64,000 nucleotides of DNA from an uncultured Pseudomonadales bacterium (GTDB lineage Bacteria; Patescibacteriota; Microgenomatia; UBA1400; CAYXSR01): NCBI GenBank assembly GCA_964430265.1, contig CAYSEI010000001.1, positions 154,786 through 218,785 of the forward strand. Direction: 5' to 3'. Shown here piece by piece: positions 3,139-61,422 of this stretch. Position 1 is the first letter of the stretch; the number at the start of each line of letters is the position of its first letter. Made by a program: the position numbers and the translations under genes. The notes under the pieces were generated by a model. That model had not been told where the DNA came from. It searched no databases and saw only the letters and a list, made by a program, of their open reading frames with translations.

Positions 3139-3601
3139 TAAAAGAAAGAACTGTAGCTCCTAAAGTAATTATTTGTGTTAACAATCCCCAAAAAATGTTG
3201 CCGTCCGCTTGATAATTGTGTTCAAACTGAACATATTTATCCATTAATTTATTACTGTAGTTTAAAAAATAGTAAGGGGCTTCAACCAAGTCGGGAAGGA
3301 TAGCAAAAAAAGCTCCTGTCCAAATTAAAATTACTTGCATTAATGATGCGTTTGTGAAGTAGGCGACTGCTGCAAGTGAAAGGTTGGCAACAACGACATC
3401 AGTAATAATGATTTTCAATGAATTTTTGCTAATTGATTTGCTTTTACTGTATTCAGTATAAATATGTGGATTCCAGTGGGGGATGAAAAAGTCAAAAATG
3501 AAATGGCTGAGAAAAGCCATTAATATACCAAGAAAGGGATTGTTCATTTTTAACATTAATAGCGCGCCAATTAAGGCATGGGGAGTTGTTAGCATACGCA
3601 T
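3128..3601 (-). CDS. Hypothetical multi-pass membrane protein
   Basis: ORF with four to five hydrophobic segments. No recognisable motif. Confidence 0.4.
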   Translation of the reverse strand: MRMLTTPHALIGALLMLKMNNPFLGILMAFLSHFIFDFFIPHWNPHIYTEYSKSKSISKNSLKIIITDVVVANLSLAAVAYFTNASLMQVILIWTGAFFAILPDLVEAPYYFLNYSNKLMDKYVQFEHNYQADGNIFWGLLTQIITLGATVLSFINL

Positions 3602-3654: not shown

Positions 3655-4581
3655 ATGTTACCAACATTAATTCAAATTGGTCCGATTGTAATATCTTCTT
3701 TGGGAGTGCTTATAGGGATTGGGTTTTTATTTGGCAGCTTTGTATTTTGGAAAAGGGGTAAAAAAGAATACTTTAAAGAAGAAGAATTAATGGACAGTGC
3801 TATTTTAACTGCAATTGCAGGTATTTTTGGTGCCAGGCTTGGATATGTTTTTTTAAATCTTTCTCAATTTAAAGGACATTTTTGGCGGATATTTGATGTT
3901 GTAGGTTATCCTGGCTTTTGGCAGTTGTCCGGAATAGTCTCTGCTTTTTTAATGCTTTGGTATTTTGGCAAGAAAAAGGGTTGGGACTTTTTTAAGGTAG
4001 CAGACATTTTTTGTTTTGGATTAACTCTTTTTTTAATATTTTTAAGGTTTGGTCTTTTTTTAGACGGTAGTTATTATGGTGTCAAGACAGATTTACCTTG
4101 GGGTCTTAGGTTTCCCGGTTTAATAGAAAAAAGACACCCGATACAAATATATGAAATAATTTTATTTTTTATTTTTTATCAATGGCTTTTTTGGGCGGAA
4201 AAAAATTACCGTACATTTGAATGGTACCAGGGCAAAAAAGGTCAAGCTAAAGAAGGTTTTCTTTTATCTTCTTTTTTCATCTTTTTTGGTTTAAGCCGAT
4301 TTGCTGTTGAATTTATACGCGTTGATACAATATATTGGAATTCACTGAGTATTTCACAATGGACAGCATTATTGTTTTTAGTTAGTGGTTTGATAATCTT
4401 GTTTACAAGAAGCGGGCAGGAGCTGAATATTGACATGGATTTAAGCGGAAAGAAGGATAAGGATAGTAAAAAAGAAGATACGGAAGAATTAAATAAGAAA
4501 AAAGAAAGGGAGAAACCTGTTAGAAAAAGGAAGAAAGTCAAAAAGAAACGTTTTAAAACAGGGGTGGATGCAAAGAAATAA
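3655..4581 (+). CDS. lgt: Prolipoprotein diacylglyceryl transferase with Lys-rich C-terminal tail
   Basis: Lgt signature RHPIQIYE plus the GYPGFWQ and FLDGSYYG blocks. Start reassigned to ATG 3655 (MLPTLIQIGP), which is preceded by TGcTATAAT at 3640-3648. The last ~60 aa are KKE-rich. Confidence 0.8.
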   Translation: MLPTLIQIGPIVISSLGVLIGIGFLFGSFVFWKRGKKEYFKEEELMDSAILTAIAGIFGARLGYVFLNLSQFKGHFWRIFDVVGYPGFWQLSGIVSAFLMLWYFGKKKGWDFFKVADIFCFGLTLFLIFLRFGLFLDGSYYGVKTDLPWGLRFPGLIEKRHPIQIYEIILFFIFYQWLFWAEKNYRTFEWYQGKKGQAKEGFLLSSFFIFFGLSRFAVEFIRVDTIYWNSLSISQWTALLFLVSGLIILFTRSGQELNIDMDLSGKKDKDSKKEDTEELNKKKEREKPVRKRKKVKKKRFKTGVDAKK

Positions 4582-4605: not shown

Positions 4606-4974
4606 GTGGCTAAAGTGAAGTTTCCGTTATCAGTACTAGAACCAGTAAGAAACTATCTGCAAAAAGAGGAAAAAAAACTAAGAAAAAGGAAAAAGGAGCT
4701 TTCTAAGGAAGATCCTTTTGAAGATCCGGATAGATTAAACGACAATGCAGCGGATTCTGATGCAGCTGAAAAAATTGGGCACGACAGGGTTTCTGCACTA
4801 AAAAAAGAAATTGACAAAACTTTAATTGAAGTAAGAAAAACTTTGACTAAGATTAAGCTGGGTAAATACGGACTTTGTGAAAGTTGTGGTGAGTTAATTG
4901 ATACTGATAGACTGTCAATAAAGCCAACTGCAGATTTATGCATGAAATGCTTAAAAAAGAAAAGCAAAAATTAA
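4606..4974 (+). CDS. DksA/TraR family C4 zinc-finger protein
   Basis: C-terminal CESCGELIDTDRLSIKPTADLCMKC (CxxC-x17-CxxC) follows a coiled-coil region. GTG start at 4606 with AAGGAGG RBS at 4594-4600. Confidence 0.7.
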   Translation: MAKVKFPLSVLEPVRNYLQKEEKKLRKRKKELSKEDPFEDPDRLNDNAADSDAAEKIGHDRVSALKKEIDKTLIEVRKTLTKIKLGKYGLCESCGELIDTDRLSIKPTADLCMKCLKKKSKN

Positions 4975-5372
4975 TTACTGTTGGAATTATTGTTGCAGTT
5001 GATCAGTTAATTAAACAGCTTCTGCTAAAATTTGGTTATAATATTGTCCTCAATAAAAAGGGTTTTTTGGGTTTATTTGATTCAAACAAAATTGCTATTA
5101 TTGTATTTGTTTTTTTGTTGATCTTTTTATACTTTTTTATTATTGCAAAAAAGAAAGAACCTTCTTTAGGTTTTTTAATGGTAATGGGGGGAGGGATTAG
5201 TAATGGTTTTGACTTTATTTTGCATAAGGGAATTATTGACTACATAAAACTTTCATTTTTACCACTAATTGGTAACTATCTTCCCATATTTAATTTGGCT
5301 GATTTAGCCATATCAACAGGTGTAATTATTATTGTTATTAATATGATAATAACAGAGGAAGAACAGGATTAG
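4938..5372 (+). CDS. lspA: Lipoprotein signal peptidase II
   Basis: SPase II conserved blocks GGGISNGFDFILHKGIIDY and FNLADLAISTGVI. An alternative start is ATG 4947. Overlaps the dksA-like 3' end. Confidence 0.75.
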   Translation: MHEMLKKEKQKLITVGIIVAVDQLIKQLLLKFGYNIVLNKKGFLGLFDSNKIAIIVFVFLLIFLYFFIIAKKKEPSLGFLMVMGGGISNGFDFILHKGIIDYIKLSFLPLIGNYLPIFNLADLAISTGVIIIVINMIITEEEQD

Positions 5373-5437
5373 ATTACTTGACAAAGTAATTGGTTTTGCT
5401 ATAATTCCAACTTGTCCCAATCTAATATTGGGATTTT

Positions 5438-5980
5438 ATGTTAATAACAACTATTTTCTCCCTATACTTGGAAGCCAGAGTTGCTTTGGCGCCCAGAATT
5501 AACAAAATCCAACAAGATAGTAAATACGTGGATTTGGCTTCTTATGGCAAAATACCGCTTAAAAGTGAAAAAAAAGTATTTAAAGATAAAAAAATGGATA
5601 ATAAAGATAAAAAGACTGATAAAATAGCTCAACAAACAAGTGCTATTAATAGGCAAGTTAAGGCTGAAGTTCCGGTAAGTATTTCTTCTATTCAAGAAAT
5701 CAGGGATTTTTTTGAAAAGTACGGCAATGAATATGGATTAGATCCTAAATTGCTTGAAAAAATTGCCTATTGTGAATCAGGATTTAACAATCGGGCGGTA
5801 AATGGTCCTTATGCAGGCCTTTTTCAATTCTGTTCCAGTACTTGGGTTTCAAACAGAAGAGCATTGGGGCTTAATACTAATCCAAATTTGAGGTTTAATG
5901 CAGAAGAATCTGTAAGAACAGCTGCTTTTAAAATATCCCGTGACGGAACTGGGGCCTGGCCGGTTTGCGGAAACATTTAA
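5438..5980 (+). CDS. Transglycosylase-like (IsaA/SceD/Rpf-like) domain protein with N-terminal membrane anchor
   Basis: C-terminal CESGFNNRAVNGPYAGLFQF..STW matches the transglycosylase-like domain signature. N-terminal hydrophobic segment. Confidence 0.55.
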   Translation: MLITTIFSLYLEARVALAPRINKIQQDSKYVDLASYGKIPLKSEKKVFKDKKMDNKDKKTDKIAQQTSAINRQVKAEVPVSISSIQEIRDFFEKYGNEYGLDPKLLEKIAYCESGFNNRAVNGPYAGLFQFCSSTWVSNRRALGLNTNPNLRFNAEESVRTAAFKISRDGTGAWPVCGNI

Positions 5981-8013: not shown

Positions 8014-8742
8014 ATGTCAGGACATTCAAAGTGGAGTAAAATCAAACACCAGAAAAGTGCAGAAGACAAGAAAAGAAGCAAGGTTTTTTCCAAGCTTTCT
8101 GAAGCAATATCAACTGCTGTAAAAGAGGGCGGTGGAGATGATCCGGAATTTAATGCCCGTTTGAAAATGGAAATTGAAAAAGCAAAAGAGGCAAATATGC
8201 CAAAAGAAAATATTCAAAGCGCAATTGACAGGGGTGCAGGAAGAGGAGAATACGGGAAAACAGAAAATATTGTTTATGAAGGTTTTGCACCTCACAAAGT
8301 TGCTCTGGTTATAAAATGCAATACTGATAATAGAAACAGAACTGCTTCAGAAATTAAATACTTGTTTGATAAAAATAACGGTTCTTTAGGTGCACCCGGA
8401 TCAAGCAGTTATCTTTTTGAGGAAAAAGGTATTTTGGAAATTTTAAAAAACAAGAATGGGGAAGAGCAGGCGTTGGAGTTAATGGAGATGAATATAGAAG
8501 ACTTTGAATTAAAAAAAGAAAAAATAAAAGTATATGTATTACCAAAAAATTTAAGCGATATTAAAAATAAAATTAAAGAGTCGGGTTTTGAAATAAAAAA
8601 AGCGGGGATAGTATTAGAACCAAAATCCACAATCACTCTTTCAGAAGATAAATATAAAAAGGTTAACAACTTCATAAATGACTTAAAAGAACACGATGAT
8701 GTTCAAATGGTCTTTAGTAATATTAAACTCATAAATGGATAA
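8014..8742 (+). CDS. yebC: YebC/PmpR family transcriptional regulator
   Basis: Diagnostic N-terminus MSGHSKWSKIKHQK and the EGGGDDPEFNARL block. Preceded by TGaTATAAT at 7999-8007, 6 nt before the ATG. Confidence 0.9.
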   Translation: MSGHSKWSKIKHQKSAEDKKRSKVFSKLSEAISTAVKEGGGDDPEFNARLKMEIEKAKEANMPKENIQSAIDRGAGRGEYGKTENIVYEGFAPHKVALVIKCNTDNRNRTASEIKYLFDKNNGSLGAPGSSSYLFEEKGILEILKNKNGEEQALELMEMNIEDFELKKEKIKVYVLPKNLSDIKNKIKESGFEIKKAGIVLEPKSTITLSEDKYKKVNNFINDLKEHDDVQMVFSNIKLING

Positions 8743-9505
8743 ACGTAAACGCTTTATTATTCAATCAGCTGTTTTATCAGCAGGTTTGTTAGCAATCCAA
8801 TCATTGTCATTGGAATGGCGGTATATTGCGGTTGCAGCCTTGTCGGTTCTGGCTTATTTTGCTTCTGCTTGGAGTTTAAGGGAGGCTTTAGTCAAGATTA
8901 GTTGGTTAACAGTTCTTCCGCTTACATTGCTTTACACGGCGGCTGTCAGTCTTTTCTATTTTCTTTTGCCTTCAAGCATTATTACCAGGATTGTGATTAT
9001 TTCTTTATTTGGAGTGGGTATGTATGCTTTACTTTTAACCAAAAATATTTTTCTGGTGGCGGCAGATAAAACTATTCAGCTTTTAAGAGCTGCCCAGGCG
9101 GTGGGATTTATAATTACTCTTATAACAGTTTTTTTTCTTTTTAACACAATTTTTTCGTTTAAACTAATTCCTTTAGAAAATAGTTTAATAAGCCTTGCTT
9201 TTGTGCCCTTTCTTGTTCTGTCTTCCTTGTGGAGTGTTTCTTTAAAAAAGTATATAGGGAAGAGGATAATAAATTATACTTTGGTTTTGGCTTGGTTAAT
9301 AGCCCAGCTAACCTTTTTTATTAGCTGTTGGCCTCTGTCAATAACTACCTCAGCCTTATTTTTAGTAAGCTATCTTTATGTAATTCTTGGAATTGTCCAA
9401 AACGCGATAATGGGAAAATTATTTAAAGATGTTTTAAAAGAATATCTTCGAGTTGCAATAATAATATTTATTTTAACTTTGTTTCTTGCAAATTGGACAC
9501 AATAA
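8735..9505 (+). CDS. Hypothetical polytopic membrane protein
   Basis: About 8 hydrophobic segments. No motif recognised. Confidence 0.4.
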   Translation: MDKRKRFIIQSAVLSAGLLAIQSLSLEWRYIAVAALSVLAYFASAWSLREALVKISWLTVLPLTLLYTAAVSLFYFLLPSSIITRIVIISLFGVGMYALLLTKNIFLVAADKTIQLLRAAQAVGFIITLITVFFLFNTIFSFKLIPLENSLISLAFVPFLVLSSLWSVSLKKYIGKRIINYTLVLAWLIAQLTFFISCWPLSITTSALFLVSYLYVILGIVQNAIMGKLFKDVLKEYLRVAIIIFILTLFLANWTQ

Positions 9506-10896
9506 TGCAGAATAGAGAAGAGAGTAGTGATATATCCTATAATTCCTTGTTTAAACATCCTATAATAACTTTGTTTTCACGAATTATGCTATAATTTTTC
9601 ACGCTGGCAGCAATGCATATTAAATGCTAAGTATTTTTTTCGGGTGATATGGTTTGATATAGTGTTGTGGAAAAGTAGAGGTTAAAGGAAGAAGATGAAT
9701 AGTTAGAGAACAAATAACTAAAAATAAATAATTCAAAATAAAATAACAAAATAATTTTTCGTATTTTTAAAAATTGATTTTAGGGCTTATCTTCTCCCGC
9801 TTATATTTTGCCGTTTTTTTGCATCTTAGAGAAGGTAGATTACTGGTGTGAGTATTATGTCGCACAAGATACATTTTGCGACATTAAGCTAATGTGGGAG
9901 AAGAATCACTCTTGTTTTTTTAAATTCTAAAAAAACCGTAACATTTGCAAAAAAATCATAAAAAATAACTATTATCTGAATCTTATTTTTGTTCTACTAC
10001 TCTATTTTTTTCTTAACTTTCATTGTTTCTTCTTAGCGTCTTTGTTTACAAGTAAAAAGTTTGTTTTTAACTAAATATTTGTAGTTTTATCAAAAGTTTG
10101 GTCTTTGTTAACGACTAGTTATATATTAACTATCTTTAAAATAGCTTAGAATGGCGCTTATTGATTTATCCTCATGTGACAAGTAAAATTAACGGTTTTC
10201 ATTATTTATTTACAATAAAACCTAATGCATATGGTTTTTATTGACAACAACCTACTATCACAATACAAAAATTATTTTATACACGTTAATTTATTAAAAT
10301 TTGAATGTGAATGTTTAAAAAAAAGTGTTTGTATTTCCCAATTTTAAAATAACTCTAAATATTTTAATTGCAACATTTTGTAAATAATTGCAATTAAAAG
10401 TAAAAGTAAAATTTTTGCTCACTTTATAAATTATTGTTAAATTAAAGTTTATTAAATAAATTAAAATGAATATTTAGGATAAACTTTACACGTCGCACAA
10501 AATTTTAATTTATTGTAAACTTATATTTTATCAGATTTTATAAATTACTATTGATTATCAAAAATTCAACAATTCTTGACATTATTGTTTTTATTTGTTT
10601 TAATATCGTAGTGTCGCACAAAACACTACTCTACTCTGATAAGTAAAAGTAGTTAAAAATAGCTACACTTTAAATAATAAAAGCAAATATTTGCAAAAAA
10701 AAAGATAGTTAAACAATTTGCTTAAAAAATTTATTAATTGATTTAATAGAAATTCTTGAAATTGTAAAAAAAGTATCTATTAGAGGTATTATTCTAATTA
10801 GATATGTAACAGATAAATAACAATGTATAAAACAGGGTATAAATTTGACTGTCAAATCAATATATTATTAAATTACCCCTGTTTTAGCACTTAAAA

Positions 10897-11886
10897 ATGA
10901 TGTTTGCTAAAGATTCCACCTCTGATGACGATAAAATTACTCGAGAAGACCCAAATGCATGGGAATACTGGATTGATCAGTTTCTGGAGTATCTGGAACT
11001 TGAAAAAAATAGTTCTCCACTGACTATCAGGAATTACCGCTTGTATTTAAAGACTTTTGAAGAGTGGATTAGTGAAAAATATGACAATTTAGATTTGTGC
11101 GACTTGGATGTGGATGTAATTAAGGATTACCGATTGCATTTAAAAAGAAAAAAAACTCGCGATGGACAAACTTTGAAAAAGAAAACCCAGGCATATTATC
11201 TTACAGCTCTGCGCTCATTTCTTAAATTCCTTTCCAAGCGAGATATTGATTCAATGGCGGCTGTAAAGATAGAGTTGCCTAAAGAAGAGGAAACTCCAAT
11301 TAAGTTTTTGAATCCGGACCAGGTTCACCGATTAGTTGAAGCTCCGGAAACAACAGAAGAAGCAGATTTGCGTGATAAAGCTATTTTAGAGACCTTATTT
11401 TCTACAGGTTTACGTGTCTCTGAATTAGTCAGCTTGGACCGCGATCAGCTTGATTTTAAGCGCAAGGAACTTGGTGTAATAGGTAAAGGTAGGCGTCCCC
11501 GGGTAGTGTTTTTATCAGACCGCTGTGTTGTTTGGCTGAAAAGATATTTGCAAAAAAGGGATGATGATTGGAAGCCTTTATTTATCCGTTATTCCGGAGC
11601 TGTGGACCATTCTAGTTACGGAGAAAATATGCGGCTTTCATCTCGTTCTGTACAAAGAATTGTTAAAAAATACGGGAAAAAGGCTGGGCTTCCAATTGAG
11701 GTAACTCCTCATGTTTTGCGTCATTCGTTTGCAACTGATTTATTAGCTCATGGGGCGGATTTAAGATCTGTTCAGGAAATGCTGGGACATAAAAACGTTT
11801 CCACAACACAAATTTATACTCACGTAACAAATAAAAGGCTTAAGGAAGTACATAAGAAATTTCACTCCGGAAGTTCAGAAGATTAA
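10897..11886 (+). CDS. Tyrosine recombinase (XerC/XerD / phage integrase family)
   Basis: C-terminal catalytic region VLRHSFATDLLAHGADLRSVQEMLGHKNVSTTQIYTHV (R..HxxR..Y). N-terminal SAM-like core-binding domain (LELEKNSSPLTIRNYRLYLK). Confidence 0.85.
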   Translation: MMFAKDSTSDDDKITREDPNAWEYWIDQFLEYLELEKNSSPLTIRNYRLYLKTFEEWISEKYDNLDLCDLDVDVIKDYRLHLKRKKTRDGQTLKKKTQAYYLTALRSFLKFLSKRDIDSMAAVKIELPKEEETPIKFLNPDQVHRLVEAPETTEEADLRDKAILETLFSTGLRVSELVSLDRDQLDFKRKELGVIGKGRRPRVVFLSDRCVVWLKRYLQKRDDDWKPLFIRYSGAVDHSSYGENMRLSSRSVQRIVKKYGKKAGLPIEVTPHVLRHSFATDLLAHGADLRSVQEMLGHKNVSTTQIYTHVTNKRLKEVHKKFHSGSSED

Positions 11887-12203
11887 AGTCCCTTACAAAA
11901 AGTTCCGTCAGCTTCCATTGTTCTGCATGCTTCCGGATATTTTTCCGGATTATCGTGTACAGAGCATCTTCCAGCATCATTAAGTGCTTCGCAATCTCTT
12001 CTTAAAGTAAAAGAAAAAAGACCTTTTTTTTTATCTACCTTAATATTATTAGGTGAACTTGGATTTAATTTAGCAATTCTTAGGATAGTTGATTCAATAC
12101 CGTCTTTACCGGCTACAAAGGTTTGTCCTTTATGGCAGCAGGCTTGAGTATCACATTGACGGCAATTTTCCGATATTCTGCTCATAATAAATTTATCATT
12201 CAA
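11883..12203 (-). CDS. YkgJ-family cysteine-cluster protein (putative Zn/Fe-chelating domain)
   Basis: CRQCDTQACCHKG (CxxCx4CC) plus downstream Cys residues. Overlaps the recombinase stop by 4 nt. Confidence 0.5.
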   Translation of the reverse strand: MNDKFIMSRISENCRQCDTQACCHKGQTFVAGKDGIESTILRIAKLNPSSPNNIKVDKKKGLFSFTLRRDCEALNDAGRCSVHDNPEKYPEACRTMEADGTFCKGL

Positions 12204-13659
12204 AAGCTTTTTTTAATTCTACCCTGGCTTTGTCAGGATCTAGTTGATCTAATAATTCATTTGTTAACTTTTTGTCTTTTCCATATCTACTATATCCTTT
12301 TATAATTCTTTTCAAAAGCTCTAAATATGATTCACTTTCTTGATCTCTTCCTGATACAATAATATCAAATACAAAAGCTAATCTTGAATTCATTTCTTTC
12401 TTTTTGCCATTTGTTCTTCTCATAAAATCAACATTTAAGTCTTTTCTGGTTCCGGAGTGTTTTTCAATTGTCTCTAATAATTTTACTAAACGTGGATTTA
12501 TTTCCCCTTCTAAATTTAAAATACCTACTTTTTTTAAATACCCTTTAGCTTCTGCTGCAGATATATCAATTGTTTTTCCTGCTGTTCTTATTTGCCAGCC
12601 CTGTTTGTGTTTATAAGATAATTCATTTGGTCTATCTCCCAAATCTCTTGTACTCATTACACCACTTGGTAAAGCTAAAGAAAAAAGTCTATTTTCTAAA
12701 TCCGCTTGTTTCTCCATTAGCACAAGGAGTTTTTTTTCAAATTCATTTTCAGGAGATTCCTTTTCTTTGATTTGTGTATATTGGTAAAATAAGTAGGCTT
12801 TCTTTATAGTTTCTACATCAATATCTTTTAAATTTACATGTCTTTTATGATATCTCTTGGCATCTGACCAAGCTTTTGTAGCAATTGGTTTCAAATATTG
12901 TTTACTTATTCTTTGGGGATTCAAACTAAAATTTACAGACTCAATATTTCTGTCTTCGTCTTGAGGGAAAACTCTAACCCAGATTGGTTCATCTTGATTT
13001 TTTTCTTTTAAAACCTTTATTATAGTAGGAAAAAATTTATAAATAAAATCGTCAAAAGAAGAGATCTCTCGGATTAAATGTCCGGTAGTCGTCAGTTCAT
13101 TTCCATATTTTTCTTTATATTCTGGAAGTCCTGCATGAGTTTGATCCCTTAATCGTCCCAGTCCAATCCAAATATTATCATAATTATTAAGTAATTCTTT
13201 GACTCTTTGCCAAATTAGAGGAATATCATCTATTAAAAACCATCTAGTTTCTGGATCATTGATATTAGCTTCTGCTTGCCAATGGGCAGAGTCAATTTTT
13301 AAAGGTATAATTGTATTAATTCCGTACTCTTCTGTATGATATCCGTATCCTAATTCCTTTGATCTTTGTGTTAGCTGCTCCAAATTTTCTTCATAAGTTT
13401 GTGGTTCAGGTTCATCAAGTTCGTTTAGATAGTTTCTAATATGAAAAATAGTAAGCATATCGGCAAAGGAATAACCTTCCAAATATTTACTATATTCGTC
13501 ATTTTTGTGGATAAATTCAATAAATTCAGGAAAGTTTTCCTCAAGATGAGAGGTATTTACAAAATCATCTGGCCAGTGAATAGATTGTTTCAATCTTGTT
13601 GGAATAGTTCTTCCATGTTCTGTTTTAGGGTGGGTTAAGGGACAAAATTCTGACAACAT
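12196..13659 (-). CDS. Hypothetical 487-513 aa protein with no recognisable motif
   Basis: Long uninterrupted ORF with protein-like composition. No Walker A or other signature found. Start placed at ATG 13659 (MLSEFCPL), but the ORF is open up to 13737. Confidence 0.5.
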   Translation of the reverse strand: MLSEFCPLTHPKTEHGRTIPTRLKQSIHWPDDFVNTSHLEENFPEFIEFIHKNDEYSKYLEGYSFADMLTIFHIRNYLNELDEPEPQTYEENLEQLTQRSKELGYGYHTEEYGINTIIPLKIDSAHWQAEANINDPETRWFLIDDIPLIWQRVKELLNNYDNIWIGLGRLRDQTHAGLPEYKEKYGNELTTTGHLIREISSFDDFIYKFFPTIIKVLKEKNQDEPIWVRVFPQDEDRNIESVNFSLNPQRISKQYLKPIATKAWSDAKRYHKRHVNLKDIDVETIKKAYLFYQYTQIKEKESPENEFEKKLLVLMEKQADLENRLFSLALPSGVMSTRDLGDRPNELSYKHKQGWQIRTAGKTIDISAAEAKGYLKKVGILNLEGEINPRLVKLLETIEKHSGTRKDLNVDFMRRTNGKKKEMNSRLAFVFDIIVSGRDQESESYLELLKRIIKGYSRYGKDKKLTNELLDQLDPDKARVELKKAFE

Positions 13660-13781
13660 AAATTTTTCTATATATATTAAAAGCGAAAGAATTATATCAG
13701 ATTTATTCTGTTTTGTAAAAAATATATGAAATAACAATCTTATTTGATAAAATACAAAAAGAAATAAATTAACTTAAAAAT

Positions 13782-45093: not shown

Positions 45094-46182
45094 TTAGAAT
45101 AAACTAGCTGTTTTGTCTAATAATATGAAATTTTTTAAGATTTTGGCAAATGTAAACAAGCTGGGTAAATGGATTTTCTCTTTTTCACTGTGTGCTCCCG
45201 TGCCTTTAGGCGAAGTTATTATTACGGGAATTTTTAATTGTGAGAAAAATCTAGCGTCTGAAGCACCACATTCATTTACAAGTTTAATTTTTCTTTTTAA
45301 CTCTTTTTCCGCTTCATTTTTCCAGATATTAATAAATTCACTTTTTCTGGAAACCTGAAACAATAAACCTTTATCAATAAATTCCAGTTGACAGTCATTT
45401 TGAGCACATATTTTCTTAATTTTTTTGATCAAAAGACTATTTTCTGCTTTTTCTATAAGTCTAACGTCAAAAAAAGCTTTACTTTCCTCCGGAATCTGAT
45501 TAAAAGCTTTGCCGGCTTCAAGTTTTGTTAAGCACAAAGTATTGCTGTTTTTGTTGTTGTTTCTTTTTTGAAGAATTCTATTTATCACGGGGATTATTTC
45601 TTCCAGGGGGTTTTTTCCCCTCCACGGCTGTGATGCGTGAGCGGAAACGCCTTTTTTTGTGATGCAGAAATGCAAAGGCGCTTTTTGCAGTTTTACGATG
45701 TCAAAATTAATCTGTGAGTCGGGAATGACAACTACTTTACAATCTTTGAACTTCACAGCCAATTTTGCAGCACCGTTAAATCCTCCGATTTCCTCATCCG
45801 AATTAATCATCAGGGCAAGGGGCAGATCTGGCTTTTGTTTTAGAACCTTAATAAATGTAATTATTAAAGCGGCTAAAGGGCCTTTCATGTCAATTGCTCC
45901 GCGTCCCAGAATCCAGGCTTTTTTTATTTTAGGCTTAAACATTTTTTTACTTCCCGGAACAACGTCAATATGGCCGCACAAAACAAGTTTGGGTTTTTTC
46001 TTTGTCTTGGCAATTAAAGACAAAAATCCATTTATTTCACAAATCTTAATATTAATGTTTTTAAGATCTTTTCTTAATACTTCTTTTATCTTTATTAATG
46101 CTTTTTCAGTTTCTTTTTTGTTGCCTGTAACTGTATTCTGTTCAATCAGTTCCAAACAAAGTTTTTTTATCTTCTTGTTCAT
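45094..46182 (-). CDS. M20-family metallopeptidase / aminoacylase (ArgE/DapE-like)
   Basis: Metal-binding motifs LCGHIDVVPG and GRGAIDMKG, then NSDEEIGG. Confidence 0.65.
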   Translation of the reverse strand: MNKKIKKLCLELIEQNTVTGNKKETEKALIKIKEVLRKDLKNINIKICEINGFLSLIAKTKKKPKLVLCGHIDVVPGSKKMFKPKIKKAWILGRGAIDMKGPLAALIITFIKVLKQKPDLPLALMINSDEEIGGFNGAAKLAVKFKDCKVVVIPDSQINFDIVKLQKAPLHFCITKKGVSAHASQPWRGKNPLEEIIPVINRILQKRNNNKNSNTLCLTKLEAGKAFNQIPEESKAFFDVRLIEKAENSLLIKKIKKICAQNDCQLEFIDKGLLFQVSRKSEFINIWKNEAEKELKRKIKLVNECGASDARFFSQLKIPVIITSPKGTGAHSEKEKIHLPSLFTFAKILKNFILLDKTASLF

Positions 46183-47207
46183 ATTTCCTTTCTAAACAAA
46201 TTTTCTATTTTCATAATTGCTTGTTCCATTTGCGGAGAAAAGCAATCGGTTGCCAGTTCCACAGGAGCCAACAGAGTATCTTTTTTAAGCTTTCCCATTA
46301 AAAGGGTTAATGGTTTTCTCCAATCAAAACCGCAGGCAATAAAACCGCTTTCCATAAGTCTTTGGATTGAAGAAAAATTACTTTTTGTCAATTGAAGCGG
46401 TGCCAGTAAAAATTTATGTTTGGCTTCAGATAGTGCTTGAGAAAGTCTTTTTCCTTTTTTATCCGGAAGTAACACTGAAAATGGTCCTTGATTGCTTACG
46501 GAGAAAGTTGTTTGTCCTGCTTTTTCATTTGGTTCCTCAAATGAAATTTCTGTAAAAGGAAATAGAGATTGGGTAATTTTTATCAATGCTTCATAGTCGT
46601 TCAGTTGAACGGGTAGGGTAATTTTTTGAGGACAGGCAAATTTTTTCAGGATCGAGAAACAGAAAAATTCGTGTCTGTCCGGTCCTTTTGGCCCGGGATG
46701 ATGAAATGCAGGTAAAATAGCATGCGGTGTCATGCCAATATTTTTTATAGCAGTTGCTTGAGACCCTTGACCTCCTTCAATATCTTCAAAATCTGCTGAC
46801 AAGCGTATTTCAGCTGTTAAAGGTTTTGTCCTGCCCATGTGACTTTTTGCAGCTTCCATCATTAATATGCTTGCCTTTTTACCGTTTTCCGGATGATTTG
46901 CGGCTCTGCCGATTTCAACATTATCTTTATGTTGAACAAGAGCTGTACAAGCAGTAAATTCACCCAAATTATTTTGTAAAAACCAGGGTATAACTTTTTG
47001 ACTACGGATAGAGTCTTCTGTTTCCTCTATTGAAGGAAGAAGGTTGTGCCTACCGTAAACTGCAGAAAGTATCTGTGTTATTGCTTCTGCTGCTTGATCA
47101 TGCGGAATATCCCCGGGCATGATAATTTTATTATCTAAAGGGATTTCTTCCCTTTTTCTGCTAAGAGTATCCAGAAACTCTGGTTTACAATGGTTTAAAG
47201 TTTCCAT
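46179..47207 (-). CDS. Hypothetical 342-aa protein, first gene behind the putative T-box leader
   Basis: Unbroken ORF that overlaps the M20 gene start by 4 nt. No motif recognised. Confidence 0.5.
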   Translation of the reverse strand: METLNHCKPEFLDTLSRKREEIPLDNKIIMPGDIPHDQAAEAITQILSAVYGRHNLLPSIEETEDSIRSQKVIPWFLQNNLGEFTACTALVQHKDNVEIGRAANHPENGKKASILMMEAAKSHMGRTKPLTAEIRLSADFEDIEGGQGSQATAIKNIGMTPHAILPAFHHPGPKGPDRHEFFCFSILKKFACPQKITLPVQLNDYEALIKITQSLFPFTEISFEEPNEKAGQTTFSVSNQGPFSVLLPDKKGKRLSQALSEAKHKFLLAPLQLTKSNFSSIQRLMESGFIACGFDWRKPLTLLMGKLKKDTLLAPVELATDCFSPQMEQAIMKIENLFRKEI

Positions 47208-47500
47208 ATTGCCCCCTTAATTTACTAATAAAGGGGCGAAGAATGCGCGGTACCACCCTACTTCACTTTGTTAAAAGCCACAAAAAAACTCTGGTGTCAC
47301 CAGAGTTAAACAGCTTAACAAAGTCTTTTTTTGACATGCTCTGTTTCTAGTGTGACACATGTTAGCAATATCACGGTTGCAACCGTCAAGGCTTACTTTT
47401 TGATTCGGCCTTGCTGCTCCGGAGGGTATTTCCTAGAATTTATACGGCGGATCTTTCAGCAACCGTCCGCTCTCTGGTGTCACTAAATTCTATTTAGTTC
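47208..47500 (-). promoter_or_regulatory. Putative T-box riboswitch leader (translational type) for the hyp-M20-tyrS operon
   Basis: Minus-strand RNA contains UAGGGUGGUACCGCG (rc of 47255-47268). It can fold as an antiterminator: A1 AGGG/CCCU, bulge UGGUACC, A2 GCG/CGC. The alternative hairpin CGCCCCUUUAUUAGUAAAUUAAGGGGGC sequesters the SD AAGGGGG, 9 nt before the ATG at 47207. Upstream stem-loops include a perfect CUCUGGU-GAC-ACCAGAG hairpin. Confidence 0.5.
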
Positions 47501-47655
47501 TCCTCTTTCTATGCATTTGTCAATTGTAATTTAGTAGTTTAAACAAAAAGGATTTGCTTGTCAAATCCAGTTATTTAAAACAGAAGTAAAACCAGATAAT
47601 TATGAATGTTTAAAGGGTTGTATAAAAACATGGATTTTGCTAAACTAAACAGGAT

Positions 47656-61265: not shown

Positions 61266-61338
61266 AACTTATTATTACACAACATAAAAGTAGATACAAC
61301 AAAGTAATAGTTTACGTGATAGATAAAGATAAAAAATG

Positions 61339-61422
61339 TGCCAGGGGCGAGAGTCGAACTCGCACGTTCGTGAGAACACACGGTCCTAAGCCGTGCCTGT
61401 CTACCAGTTTCAGCACCCTGGC
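61339..61422 (-). tRNA. tRNA-Leu(TAG), class II
   Basis: Manually folded: acceptor GCCAGGG/CCCTGGC, anticodon stem CACGG/CCGTG with loop CTTAGGA, long variable arm, T-arm GCGAG-TTCGACT-CTCGC. Confidence 0.85.

Follow-up and report, generated by a model that had tools for sequence, protein, structure and literature searches.

The gap upstream of xer

We analyzed 64,000 nt of contig CAYSEI010000001.1 (positions 154,786 to 218,785 of GenBank assembly GCA_964430265.1; hereafter, the window), from a Patescibacteria genome, with a focus on a 1.4-kb gap that holds a repeated motif, a candidate dif-like recombination site, and adjoins, as first noted in a preliminary description of this DNA, a gene for a tyrosine recombinase of the Xer family (xer). 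The gap (9506-10896) is bounded by a DUF5656-like membrane-protein gene (8735-9505, plus strand) and by xer (10897-11886, plus strand). It is AT-rich and free of open reading frames (ORFs) of 60 aa or more, as that description had it: the largest ORF within it has 48 aa (10709-10855, minus strand), a 60-aa ORF (9376-9558, minus strand) overlaps the end of the DUF5656-like gene, and the GC content of positions 9001-11000 (0.26) is the minimum of the window (0.28 to 0.40 elsewhere).

Counts of the GCGCACAA-type motif place the 9-mer GTCGCACAA on the plus strand at 9859, 10492, and 10613 and on the minus strand at 11095-11103. The three plus-strand copies had been reported before, with coordinates one base off, and the fourth had been overlooked. 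These four are the only copies in 64 kb, and all fall inside 1.25 kb (expected number, 0.20; 0 of 100 shuffles gave four). The 11-mer ATGTCGCACAA, allowing up to one mismatch, occurs five times, always in 9857-11105, and the rest of the window has no more two-mismatch matches than chance predicts.

Copy 1 is included in a 28-bp sequence, ATGTCGCACAA-GATACA-TTTTGCGACAT (9857-9884, plus strand), in which a 6-bp spacer separates two inverted 11-bp arms; the window has no other match to it at up to 3 mismatches. This is the architecture of dif sites, which are defined by partly symmetric arms of about 11 bp and a central region of 6 to 8 bp; typically, the strands are cut within 6 bp that separate half-sites of 11 bp (PMC5357621, PMC2958812). 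The arm-spacer geometry of 9857-9884 is thus of the dif type. With Escherichia coli dif, the core has, by our count, 14 of 28 positions in common, mostly inner arm bases. Accepted Pyrococcus dif sites match the bacterial consensus at the same number of positions (14 of 28; PMC2958812). Both inverted repeats named in the preliminary description are present, namely, the two core arms and GTAGTG..CACTAC around 10608-10629, and so are its further palindromes, TCTTCTCCC (9790-9798) with GGGAGAAGA (9896-9904) and ATTGCAA..TTGCAAT near 10366.

The xer gene encodes a predicted protein of 329 aa with the Pfam domains Phage_integrase (3.2e-47) and Phage_int_SAM_1 (2.2e-16), and its best solved relatives are E. 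coli XerD (1a0p; 1.9e-46) and Pyrococcus XerA (4a8e). Together with the NCBIfam matches, these give the site what dif-type sites have, a candidate cognate recombinase of the Xer family. Six residues, R173, K197, H272, R275, H298, and Y307, presumably form, by our assignment, the catalytic R-K-H-R-H/W-Y set; in 30 homologues, the K197 column is nearly invariant and the other five are invariant. NCBIfam scores fall below the cutoffs for XerC (265 bits; cutoff, 335) and XerD (261; cutoff, 330) and above that for archaeal XerA (NF040815; 234; cutoff, 220). Since the XerC and XerD bits exceed the XerA bits and the host is bacterial, these scores show an apparently intermediate placement, not an archaeal origin. 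The XerS model matches over the C-terminal half only and below its cutoff (128.8; cutoff, 267), which places the protein outside the XerS and XerH subfamilies. At the triplet aligned with R-Q-T of XerD, the protein has S-R-S, which is not the XerD signature. This would fit the XerC-type signature "XRX" (PMC2958812) if the triplet is correctly chosen, and we treat it as a lead. The top homologues are from Patescibacteria (e.g., Beckwithbacteria and Levybacteria). No second Xer gene and no dnaA, dnaN, ftsK, or parB gene lies within the window.

Recombinase target sites were one of three explanations offered in the preliminary description, and the one that gains support here, refined to a 28-bp dif-like core at copy 1 plus solitary half-sites. 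We consider that GTCGCACAA is probably the recognition sequence of the Xer recombinase, with the 28-mer as its core site, and that a linked Xer recombinase with a dif-like core and solitary half-sites is the best overall explanation of the locus, at a probability of roughly 0.72.

Conservation of the core with xer

We compared the locus with 80 GTDB Patescibacteria loci, obtained by a protein-anchored xer scan at one genome per species (9 kb per locus, reaching 4 kb upstream of xer), and with the closest relative, L001, whose xer is 81% identical to that of the window. Conservation of the motif in relatives, which the preliminary description had proposed as a check, is evident: a canonical core (consensus RYGTCGYACAA-N6-TTTTRCGACRY) lies 0.4 to 3.8 kb upstream of the orthologous xer in 47 of the 80 loci and also in L001, giving, with the window, 49 core sites for comparison. 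The 6-bp spacing is kept in 49/49 sites, and the CACAA arm comes first relative to xer in 47/49. In all 47 loci the core lies in noncoding DNA, and there is one copy per 9-kb locus, as there is one in the 64-kb window. L001 has the same gene order, with GCGTCGCACAA-GATACA-TTTTACGACGT at the equivalent place.

Variant 11-6-11 palindromes were found less than 150 bp upstream of xer in 4 further loci. Locus L081, with a diverged xer, has the palindrome ATGTCGTATAA-TATAAG-TTAAACGACTA (arms also given as GTCGTATAA/GTCGTTTAA); upstream of xer, L026 and L005 have the TTCGCACAA-type sequences ACTTCGCACAA-CGGCAC-TTTTAGCGAAGT and GGTTCGGACAA-CGGCAC-TTTTGCGAACC, and L035 has ATTTCCTAAAA-TGTAAC-TTTTAGGAAAT. 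Diverged xer lineages thus carry different 11-6-11 palindromes, indicating that the site changes together with the recombinase.

Some of the records used here carry unexpected names. L005, L009, L013-L015, and many others have Patescibacteria-like xer and site under titles such as "uncultured Gammaproteobacteria," "Pseudomonadales," and "Chloroflexia," and L075, likewise with Patescibacteria-like xer and site, is titled "Bathyarchaeota." Such records are probably mislabelled metagenome-assembled genomes or contaminant contigs.

Occurrence of the site in viral contigs

The pattern GTCGYACAA-N6-TTTTRCGAC matched at least 120 IMG/VR contigs. Among the matches listed, the site is intergenic in 107 of 120 contigs, and positions left free by the pattern show the host bias (position 1 A/G, position 2 T/C, position 12 T in 99/120). 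A Xer-profile hidden Markov model found a recombinase in 1 (weakly, 3) of these 120 viral loci, which total 1.06 Mb. Phage genes were identified on three contigs: L084, which encodes a terminase (1.9e-76), a portal protein, and a major head protein, is a tailed phage; a rolling-circle Rep is encoded on L090 (8.4 kb) and a Zot-like protein on L107 (4.6 kb). Possession of a dif-like site without a recombinase gene of one's own is the mark of integrative mobile elements exploiting Xer (IMEX; CTXphi, VGJphi, TLCphi, and the gonococcal GGI), which likewise have an intergenic full host-type site and no recombinase gene nearby. Unlike the case in IMEX, no integrated copy between two dif-like sites was seen, a weak negative with flanks of 4 kb; tailed phages carry the site too, and cer-like multimer resolution is equally possible. 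This pattern suggests elements that exploit the host Xer, for integration or for resolution of their own multimers, and viral carriage is the strongest indirect evidence that the core is a working recombination site.

Several viral contigs (L094, L122, L087/L168, and L189) have an extra half-site 60 to 800 bp from the full site, once inverted and about 74 nt away. CTXphi has paired attP sites, of which these extra half-sites are reminiscent.

Half-sites at the xer promoter

Copies 2 and 3 are solitary. Copy 2 (ACGTCGCACAA, 10490-10500, plus strand) shows no right-arm similarity at the expected bases, and CGTCGCACAAAA at this copy is identical in L001 at 12 of 12 positions, whereas the surrounding DNA has diverged. 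Upstream of copy 3 lies a promoter-like element, TTGACA (10576-10581) and TTTAAT (10599-10604) with a 17-nt spacer (plus strand), whose hexamers and spacing are conserved in L001; our promoter scan did not list it because the scan demands A at position 2 of the -10 hexamer. Copy 3 (GTGTCGCACAA, 10611-10621, plus strand; ACGTCGTACAA in L001) begins 6 nt past the -10 hexamer and would therefore cover the expected start of transcription (about +1 to +10). The preliminary description had placed a -10-like hexamer before each copy, which holds for copy 3, with its conserved TTTAAT, and not for copies 1 and 2, where the preceding bases are unconserved. Next to copy 3 is an inverted block (CACTACTCTACTCTG on the plus strand; 10624-10638, minus strand), the reverse complement of the AGAGTAGTG-type "R" motif described below, of which CTCTACTCTG is conserved in L001; inverted R-type blocks (CCACTCCCC) occur near the xer promoter in several relatives.

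Half-sites before xer are widespread. Of 82 loci, 47 have a solitary plus-strand half-site in the 330 nt before xer; the minus strand has one in 7 of 82, and chance would give about 2.5. The plus-strand half-site abuts the -35 hexamer in many Woesebacteria-like loci (GTCGCACAATGTTATTGACA) and occupies the -10 position in Levybacteria-like and Roizmanbacteria-like loci (TTGACA-17-CACAAT or GTCGTTTAAT). L001 has two solitary copies before xer and one inside it. The corresponding fourth copy in the window (AAGTCGCACAA, 11095-11105, minus strand), at codons L-C-D of xer, is also found in L001-L003, with comparable intragenic copies in just a few other loci, and cannot be separated from coding constraint or chance.

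We rejected copies 2 and 3 as recombination partners of the core: lacking a second arm and having a different central region, solitary half-sites should be unable to recombine. The half-site at the promoter is instead a candidate autoregulatory operator bound by the predicted recombinase, a proposal to which we give about even odds. We know of no precedent among Xer systems for a recombinase half-site on the recombinase's own promoter.

The same observations invite the reading that the motif is an operator of an unrelated dimeric transcription factor, with the palindrome as a full operator, with the solitary copies as weak operators for xer and for a transcript that starts at the promoter-like upstream array, and with phages plugging into host regulation. 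Palindromes with solitary promoter half-sites are typical of repressors, the half-sites overlap the -35 or -10 hexamer of xer promoters, the core is not at the replication terminus, and R and TTTTCACG turn up near xer promoters as well as in the array, which points to regulatory elements in common. Against this, the exact 11-6-11 geometry and the dif-like inner arms and central region (CGCA-AA / TGTAT / TT-TG) have the look of a tyrosine recombinase core, the site is always xer linked and covaries with the xer lineage, it occurs once per locus and not before many genes, and no candidate regulator gene is conserved in the neighborhood. We therefore consider an unrelated operator unlikely.

Three side observations concern the DNA just before xer. 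The xer leader of about 290 nt (10640-10896) has the islands GTAGATAT, GTATAAA, and TTAGCA in common with L001. In L011 (Curtissbacteria), about eight tandem CTGACAA heptamers (approximately 3905-3970) stand right before the xer start and could be slippage prone. L019 has a run of N (approximately 1950-1990; masked or unresolved) upstream of xer.

Gene turnover between core and xer

To the left, the loci are constant (DUF5656 gene, motif array, core), whereas the slot between core and xer holds different genes by lineage: a SpoU methylase gene, a glycosyltransferase gene with a zeta-like kinase gene, or genes for a trehalase, an AP-endonuclease-like protein, an alpha/beta hydrolase, or hypothetical proteins. 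The presence of unrelated genes in the slot of each lineage marks it as a hotspot of gene turnover. Loci with no site in 4 kb have subtilase or cohesin-domain (surface-protein) genes upstream of xer and no phage genes.

In L001, the slot contains an intact SpoU gene (4947-5471, minus strand) between core and xer. The window retains a 62-nt remnant of the 3' end of such a SpoU-type methylase gene (10110-10171, minus strand; blastn match to L001 4911-4972). No protein-level trace of SpoU was found elsewhere in the gap, and we rejected a SpoU pseudogene beyond this remnant. Apart from the putative binding sites, the 1.4 kb comprises the motif array, the AT-rich spacer, what is left of the SpoU methylase gene, and the lengthy leader of xer.

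These findings could also mean that recombinase and site form a gene acquisition or switching platform instead of resolving dimers, whether by integron-like or dif-module capture, beside the core, of circular DNA that bears a matching site or by segment inversion. Such a platform would account for the different unrelated gene in each lineage beside a constant left side, for the many mobile elements that bear the site, and for the remains of a cargo gene and the additional half-sites that the window has in its slot. It is harder to reconcile with cargo genes that lack second full flanking sites (no locus with two full sites exists among the relatives), with half-site central regions that differ from that of the core of the same locus and hence are not recent recombination products, and with the absence of a viral gene from every slot. 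Genes downstream of xer vary too, and the whole area may simply be plastic. On balance, a platform seems rather improbable, slightly more so than the unrelated operator.

Arm variation and RNA structure

The arms of the 49 core sites were compared for signs of base pairing. At position 7 and its mirror 22, the one arm position that varies, the combinations C/G (22 sites), C/A (18), T/A (5), and T/G (3) show no association between arms (Fisher P = 0.45), leaving a C.A mismatch in midstem in 18/49 sites (37%). Positions 9 and 20 have a C.T mismatch fixed in 47/49 sites, and matches of the outer dinucleotides are at about the chance level (18 observed, 13.6 expected). What is conserved is a pair of similar half-sites with a fixed asymmetry, CACAA versus CAAAA. 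Because the arms vary independently, with C.A mismatches at 37% of sites, the element is better described as a pair of putative protein half-sites than as a hairpin; pairing is not conserved.

Around the core, TCTTCTCCC (9790-9798, plus strand) pairs with the R-type purine block GGGAGAAGA (9896-9904) in the predicted fold (z = -3.5), and the latter is followed by a T-run (9915-9921), an arrangement (9896-9921, plus strand) that recurs in relatives: a CTCCC-like block precedes the core by about 55 to 65 nt, and in most of them a GGGGAGGAGTGG-like block, frequently with a T-run after it, comes 12 to 30 nt past the core. A systematic stem search found the bracketing stem to be significant in only about 5 of 47 loci (mean z = 0.46), and we do not claim a general hairpin or terminator around the core. 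Inverted repeats also bracket the dif sites of Thermococcales, where they were proposed as partner-binding sites (PMC2958812).

A cluster of small structured RNAs sharing the motif had been another of the preliminary explanations. The region would then encode one or more such RNAs, with the palindrome as a hairpin, perhaps in a long terminator, and GTCGCACAA as an RNA motif. Its attractions are the promoter-like CCTATAAT and TGCTATAAT upstream and the outer stem and T-run around the palindrome in the window (with the z value of -3.5 given above), L001, L069, and L023. Rfam 15, however, gave no match at the gathering score in the region or in 16 relatives, and the covariance-model scan that had been suggested returned nothing for the region in the window at E values up to 10 beyond chance-level matches (E of 3 to 8). 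An RNAalifold consensus of four close relatives shows no covarying structure (covariation term, -0.25 kcal/mol), the C.A mismatches and the fixed C.T show no compensatory pattern, the outer stem is rarely significant, and the stretch between array and core varies in length and sequence. We regard a structured RNA as very unlikely.

The upstream motif array and replication skew

An ordered motif array precedes the core (9521-9674, plus strand), and the same motifs, mostly in the same order, occur in about 45 related loci. It opens with AGAGTAGTG ("R"; 9521-9529, plus strand) and continues on the plus strand with the promoter-like CCTATAAT (9536 and 9559), TTTTCACG twice, 22 bp apart (9574 and 9596), the promoter-like TGCTATAAT (9587-9595), and GATATGG (9646) and GATATAG (9656), 10 bp apart; a single DnaA-box-like TGTGGAAAA (9666-9674) ends it. 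The very AT-rich spacer from array to core (9675-9789), read directly from the sequence, is unconserved in length and sequence, and the array lies 130 to 900 bp upstream of the core in relatives (e.g., L069 [3365-3450], L071, L050, and L047-L049). GC-richer relatives have GGGGAGGAGTGG and a perfect DnaA box, TGTGGATAA (minus strand), in the array; there is one DnaA box per locus, in constant orientation. The full set occurs once in 64 kb. R and plus-strand CCTATAAT are unique in the window, TTTTCACG, GATATAG, and the DnaA-box-like 9-mer also occur singly elsewhere in it, and inverted copies of R lie at 9994-10003 and 10624-10638, the latter beside copy 3.

The array matched no known element, and it is on none of the viral contigs among the matches listed; viral L170, considered as a carrier, was rejected, having no array and no similarity to host loci. 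Possible roles are accessory recombination sites (against which the variable spacing speaks), a promoter reading through the core, or DnaA-linked regulation.

Raw GC skew merely tracks gene strand, flipping five times in the window, and we therefore used the skew at third codon positions (GC3 skew) of each gene. On the plus strand, it is +0.27 (12 plus-strand genes) and +0.32 (2 minus-strand genes, converted) left of the site and +0.16 (21 plus-strand genes) and +0.09 (28 minus-strand genes, converted) right of it. On their own coding strands, plus-strand genes have positive and minus-strand genes negative GC3 skew, and this agreement means that the plus strand is G-rich at third positions throughout the window. 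There is no GC3 skew switch within -10 kb or +54 kb of the site, which is neither a minimum nor a maximum of the skew that the preliminary description had proposed to consult. Genes flank the site on either side in 39 related loci; of these, 35 have positive skew left and right, 0 have the terminus pattern, and 3 have the origin pattern (negative, then positive). Since the sign is the same to the left and right, the locus falls within a replication arm, and xer is a leading-strand gene. Bacterial dif sites are normally at the replication terminus.

The third preliminary explanation was an origin-like region. Taken as an origin of chromosome replication in or at this region, neighbored by a resolution site (a pairing found in many plasmids), it could draw on the perfect DnaA box of many relatives and TGTGGAAAA in the window, on iteron-like repeats phased by about 22 bp and 10 bp with the AT-rich stretch following, and on dnaB, gyrB, gyrA, and holB within 12 kb, but it is highly improbable given that an origin is recognized by several DnaA boxes, a conserved AT-rich unwinding element, and a skew minimum, whereas this region has one DnaA box per locus, an AT-rich stretch that is unconserved in higher-GC relatives, no skew switch, and neither dnaA nor dnaN in the window.

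Other features of the window

Directly downstream of xer, two minus-strand ORFs of 106 aa (11883-12203) and 513 aa (12196-13737) match nothing in Pfam or NCBIfam. L001 lacks the larger of the two, as well as a HIT-family gene and a 170-aa ORF, so that the region downstream of xer is variable, too. Farther away, a T-box leader (47229-47520, minus strand; Rfam, 106.9 bits) lies upstream of a 342-aa ORF (46179-47207) with no Pfam match; genes for an M20 peptidase and a tyrosyl-tRNA synthetase come next. A T-box at the head of such an operon is unusual for the candidate phyla radiation (CPR). ARAGORN predicts a tRNA-Leu gene (anticodon TAG; 61338-61422, minus strand), which the Rfam scan at the gathering score did not list.

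Discussion

The locus can be read as a gene-linked recombination module in which the GTCGCACAA copies would be DNA-binding half-sites of the recombinase whose gene follows. In the core, copy 1 would be joined by an inverted second arm, with strands cut and exchanged in the 6-bp central region. Since the two arms hardly differ and each is similar to the E. coli dif arm on the XerC side, one recombinase species could fill both, as in the XerS, XerH, and XerA systems, and the fixed C/A difference at arm position 9 would make the site directional. The half-site at the promoter may let the recombinase repress its own gene, and phages and small circular elements may borrow the host enzyme for integration or multimer resolution.

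Linkage of site and gene, seen here within 4 kb in 47 of 80 loci and in the 4 variant loci, is the hallmark of the single-recombinase XerS and XerH systems (PMC5357621). XerS/difSL of streptococci and lactococci and XerH/difH of Helicobacter and Campylobacter likewise join a gene to its own imperfect palindrome (PMC5357621), and the near-identical arms here fit one protein species. The differences are considerable: the window protein is shorter (329 aa versus about 356 to 362 aa) and of another subfamily (XerS score, 128.8 versus the cutoff of 267), the central region of difSL has 11 bp rather than 6 bp, and, unlike in XerS/XerH, the site is separated from the gene by 0.4 kb to more than 4 kb of DNA that holds variable genes, lacks a skew switch, and is accompanied by a promoter half-site and an upstream array. 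In site and enzyme, the module looks closer to archaeal XerA/dif, which has the same 28-bp (11-6-11) format, nearly symmetric arms, inverted-repeat flanks, and 14/28 agreement with bacterial dif, and whose family model the window protein passes (234 versus 220). XerA works without FtsK in vitro (PMC2958812), and by analogy an FtsK-free action would fit a site away from the terminus. Thermococcales dif sites differ in that they are not beside xerA and lie in the terminus region (PMC2958812), and the host here is bacterial.

The XerC half of XerCD/dif (E. coli and Bacillus subtilis) is similarly close. Core geometry, inner arms and central region (CGCA-AA, TGTAT-like, TT-TG), and recombinase family agree, whereas XerCD/dif has distinct XerC and XerD arms instead of near-identical ones, the protein scores below both equivalog cutoffs, and the site here is gene linked and off the terminus. 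The accessory sequences of plasmid cer and psi make Xer recombination FtsK independent and need a fixed geometry. As in cer and psi, nearly all loci have a conserved protein-binding-like motif block at the same side of the core; unlike there, the distance from array to core ranges from 130 to 900 bp, and of the known accessory boxes (ArgR, ArcA, PepA) none was recognized, no search aimed at them having been made, whereas the array has a DnaA box. Overall, the module would work like linked XerS/XerH, with four departures from known modules: its location within a replication arm, the half-site on the promoter, the array upstream of the core, and the slot of changing gene content. The literature that we searched contains no description of an Xer/dif system in the CPR. 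Our verdict is a variant of the linked single-recombinase Xer/dif module, apparently new for the CPR.

Several observations weigh against this reading. No canonical site was found in the 4-kb flank of 33 of the 80 loci, of which some flanks are truncated and four have variant palindromes. Viral central regions differ from those of hosts at positions 16-17, and no viral contig has the central region of this genome (GATACA) or the commonest host one (TAATAC). A tblastn search of all viral ORFs against the host loci, a small sample with 4-kb flanks, detected no integrated prophage in the slot. In the window and in 35 of the 39 loci, the site is not at a GC skew switch, and none of the 39 has the terminus pattern that would be normal for a bacterial dif site. 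The bracketing repeat and T-run resemble a terminator, and the flanks may act at the RNA level. Binding by this recombinase and recombination at the core are inferred from the sequence.

For the host, the likeliest function would be chromosome dimer resolution by a gene-linked single-recombinase Xer module, to which we give as much credence as doubt. The site lies within a replication arm and not at the terminus, and for this reason its activity is probably not steered by FtsK like that of E. coli dif. A bolder proposal would make this the only Xer site of the chromosome, held in a replication arm in fixed orientation to the fork and under control of the DnaA-box array, where it would serve FtsK-free, cell-cycle-sensed dimer resolution and, as the chief entry point for phages and singly acquired genes, account for the hypervariable slot; we offer it as a doubtful conjecture.

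If the interpretation as a linked Xer module is true, RYGTCGYACAA-N6-TTTTRCGACRY would be a 28-bp landmark for a large, mostly uncultured part of the bacterial tree and would allow phages and small circular elements to be linked by sequence to Patescibacteria hosts. The array with its single DnaA box is a cis-element that can now be tested. The module would also represent a bacterial dif-like site that is gene linked, possibly self-regulated, and off the terminus, and would thereby bear on whether Xer recombination needs FtsK and the terminus.

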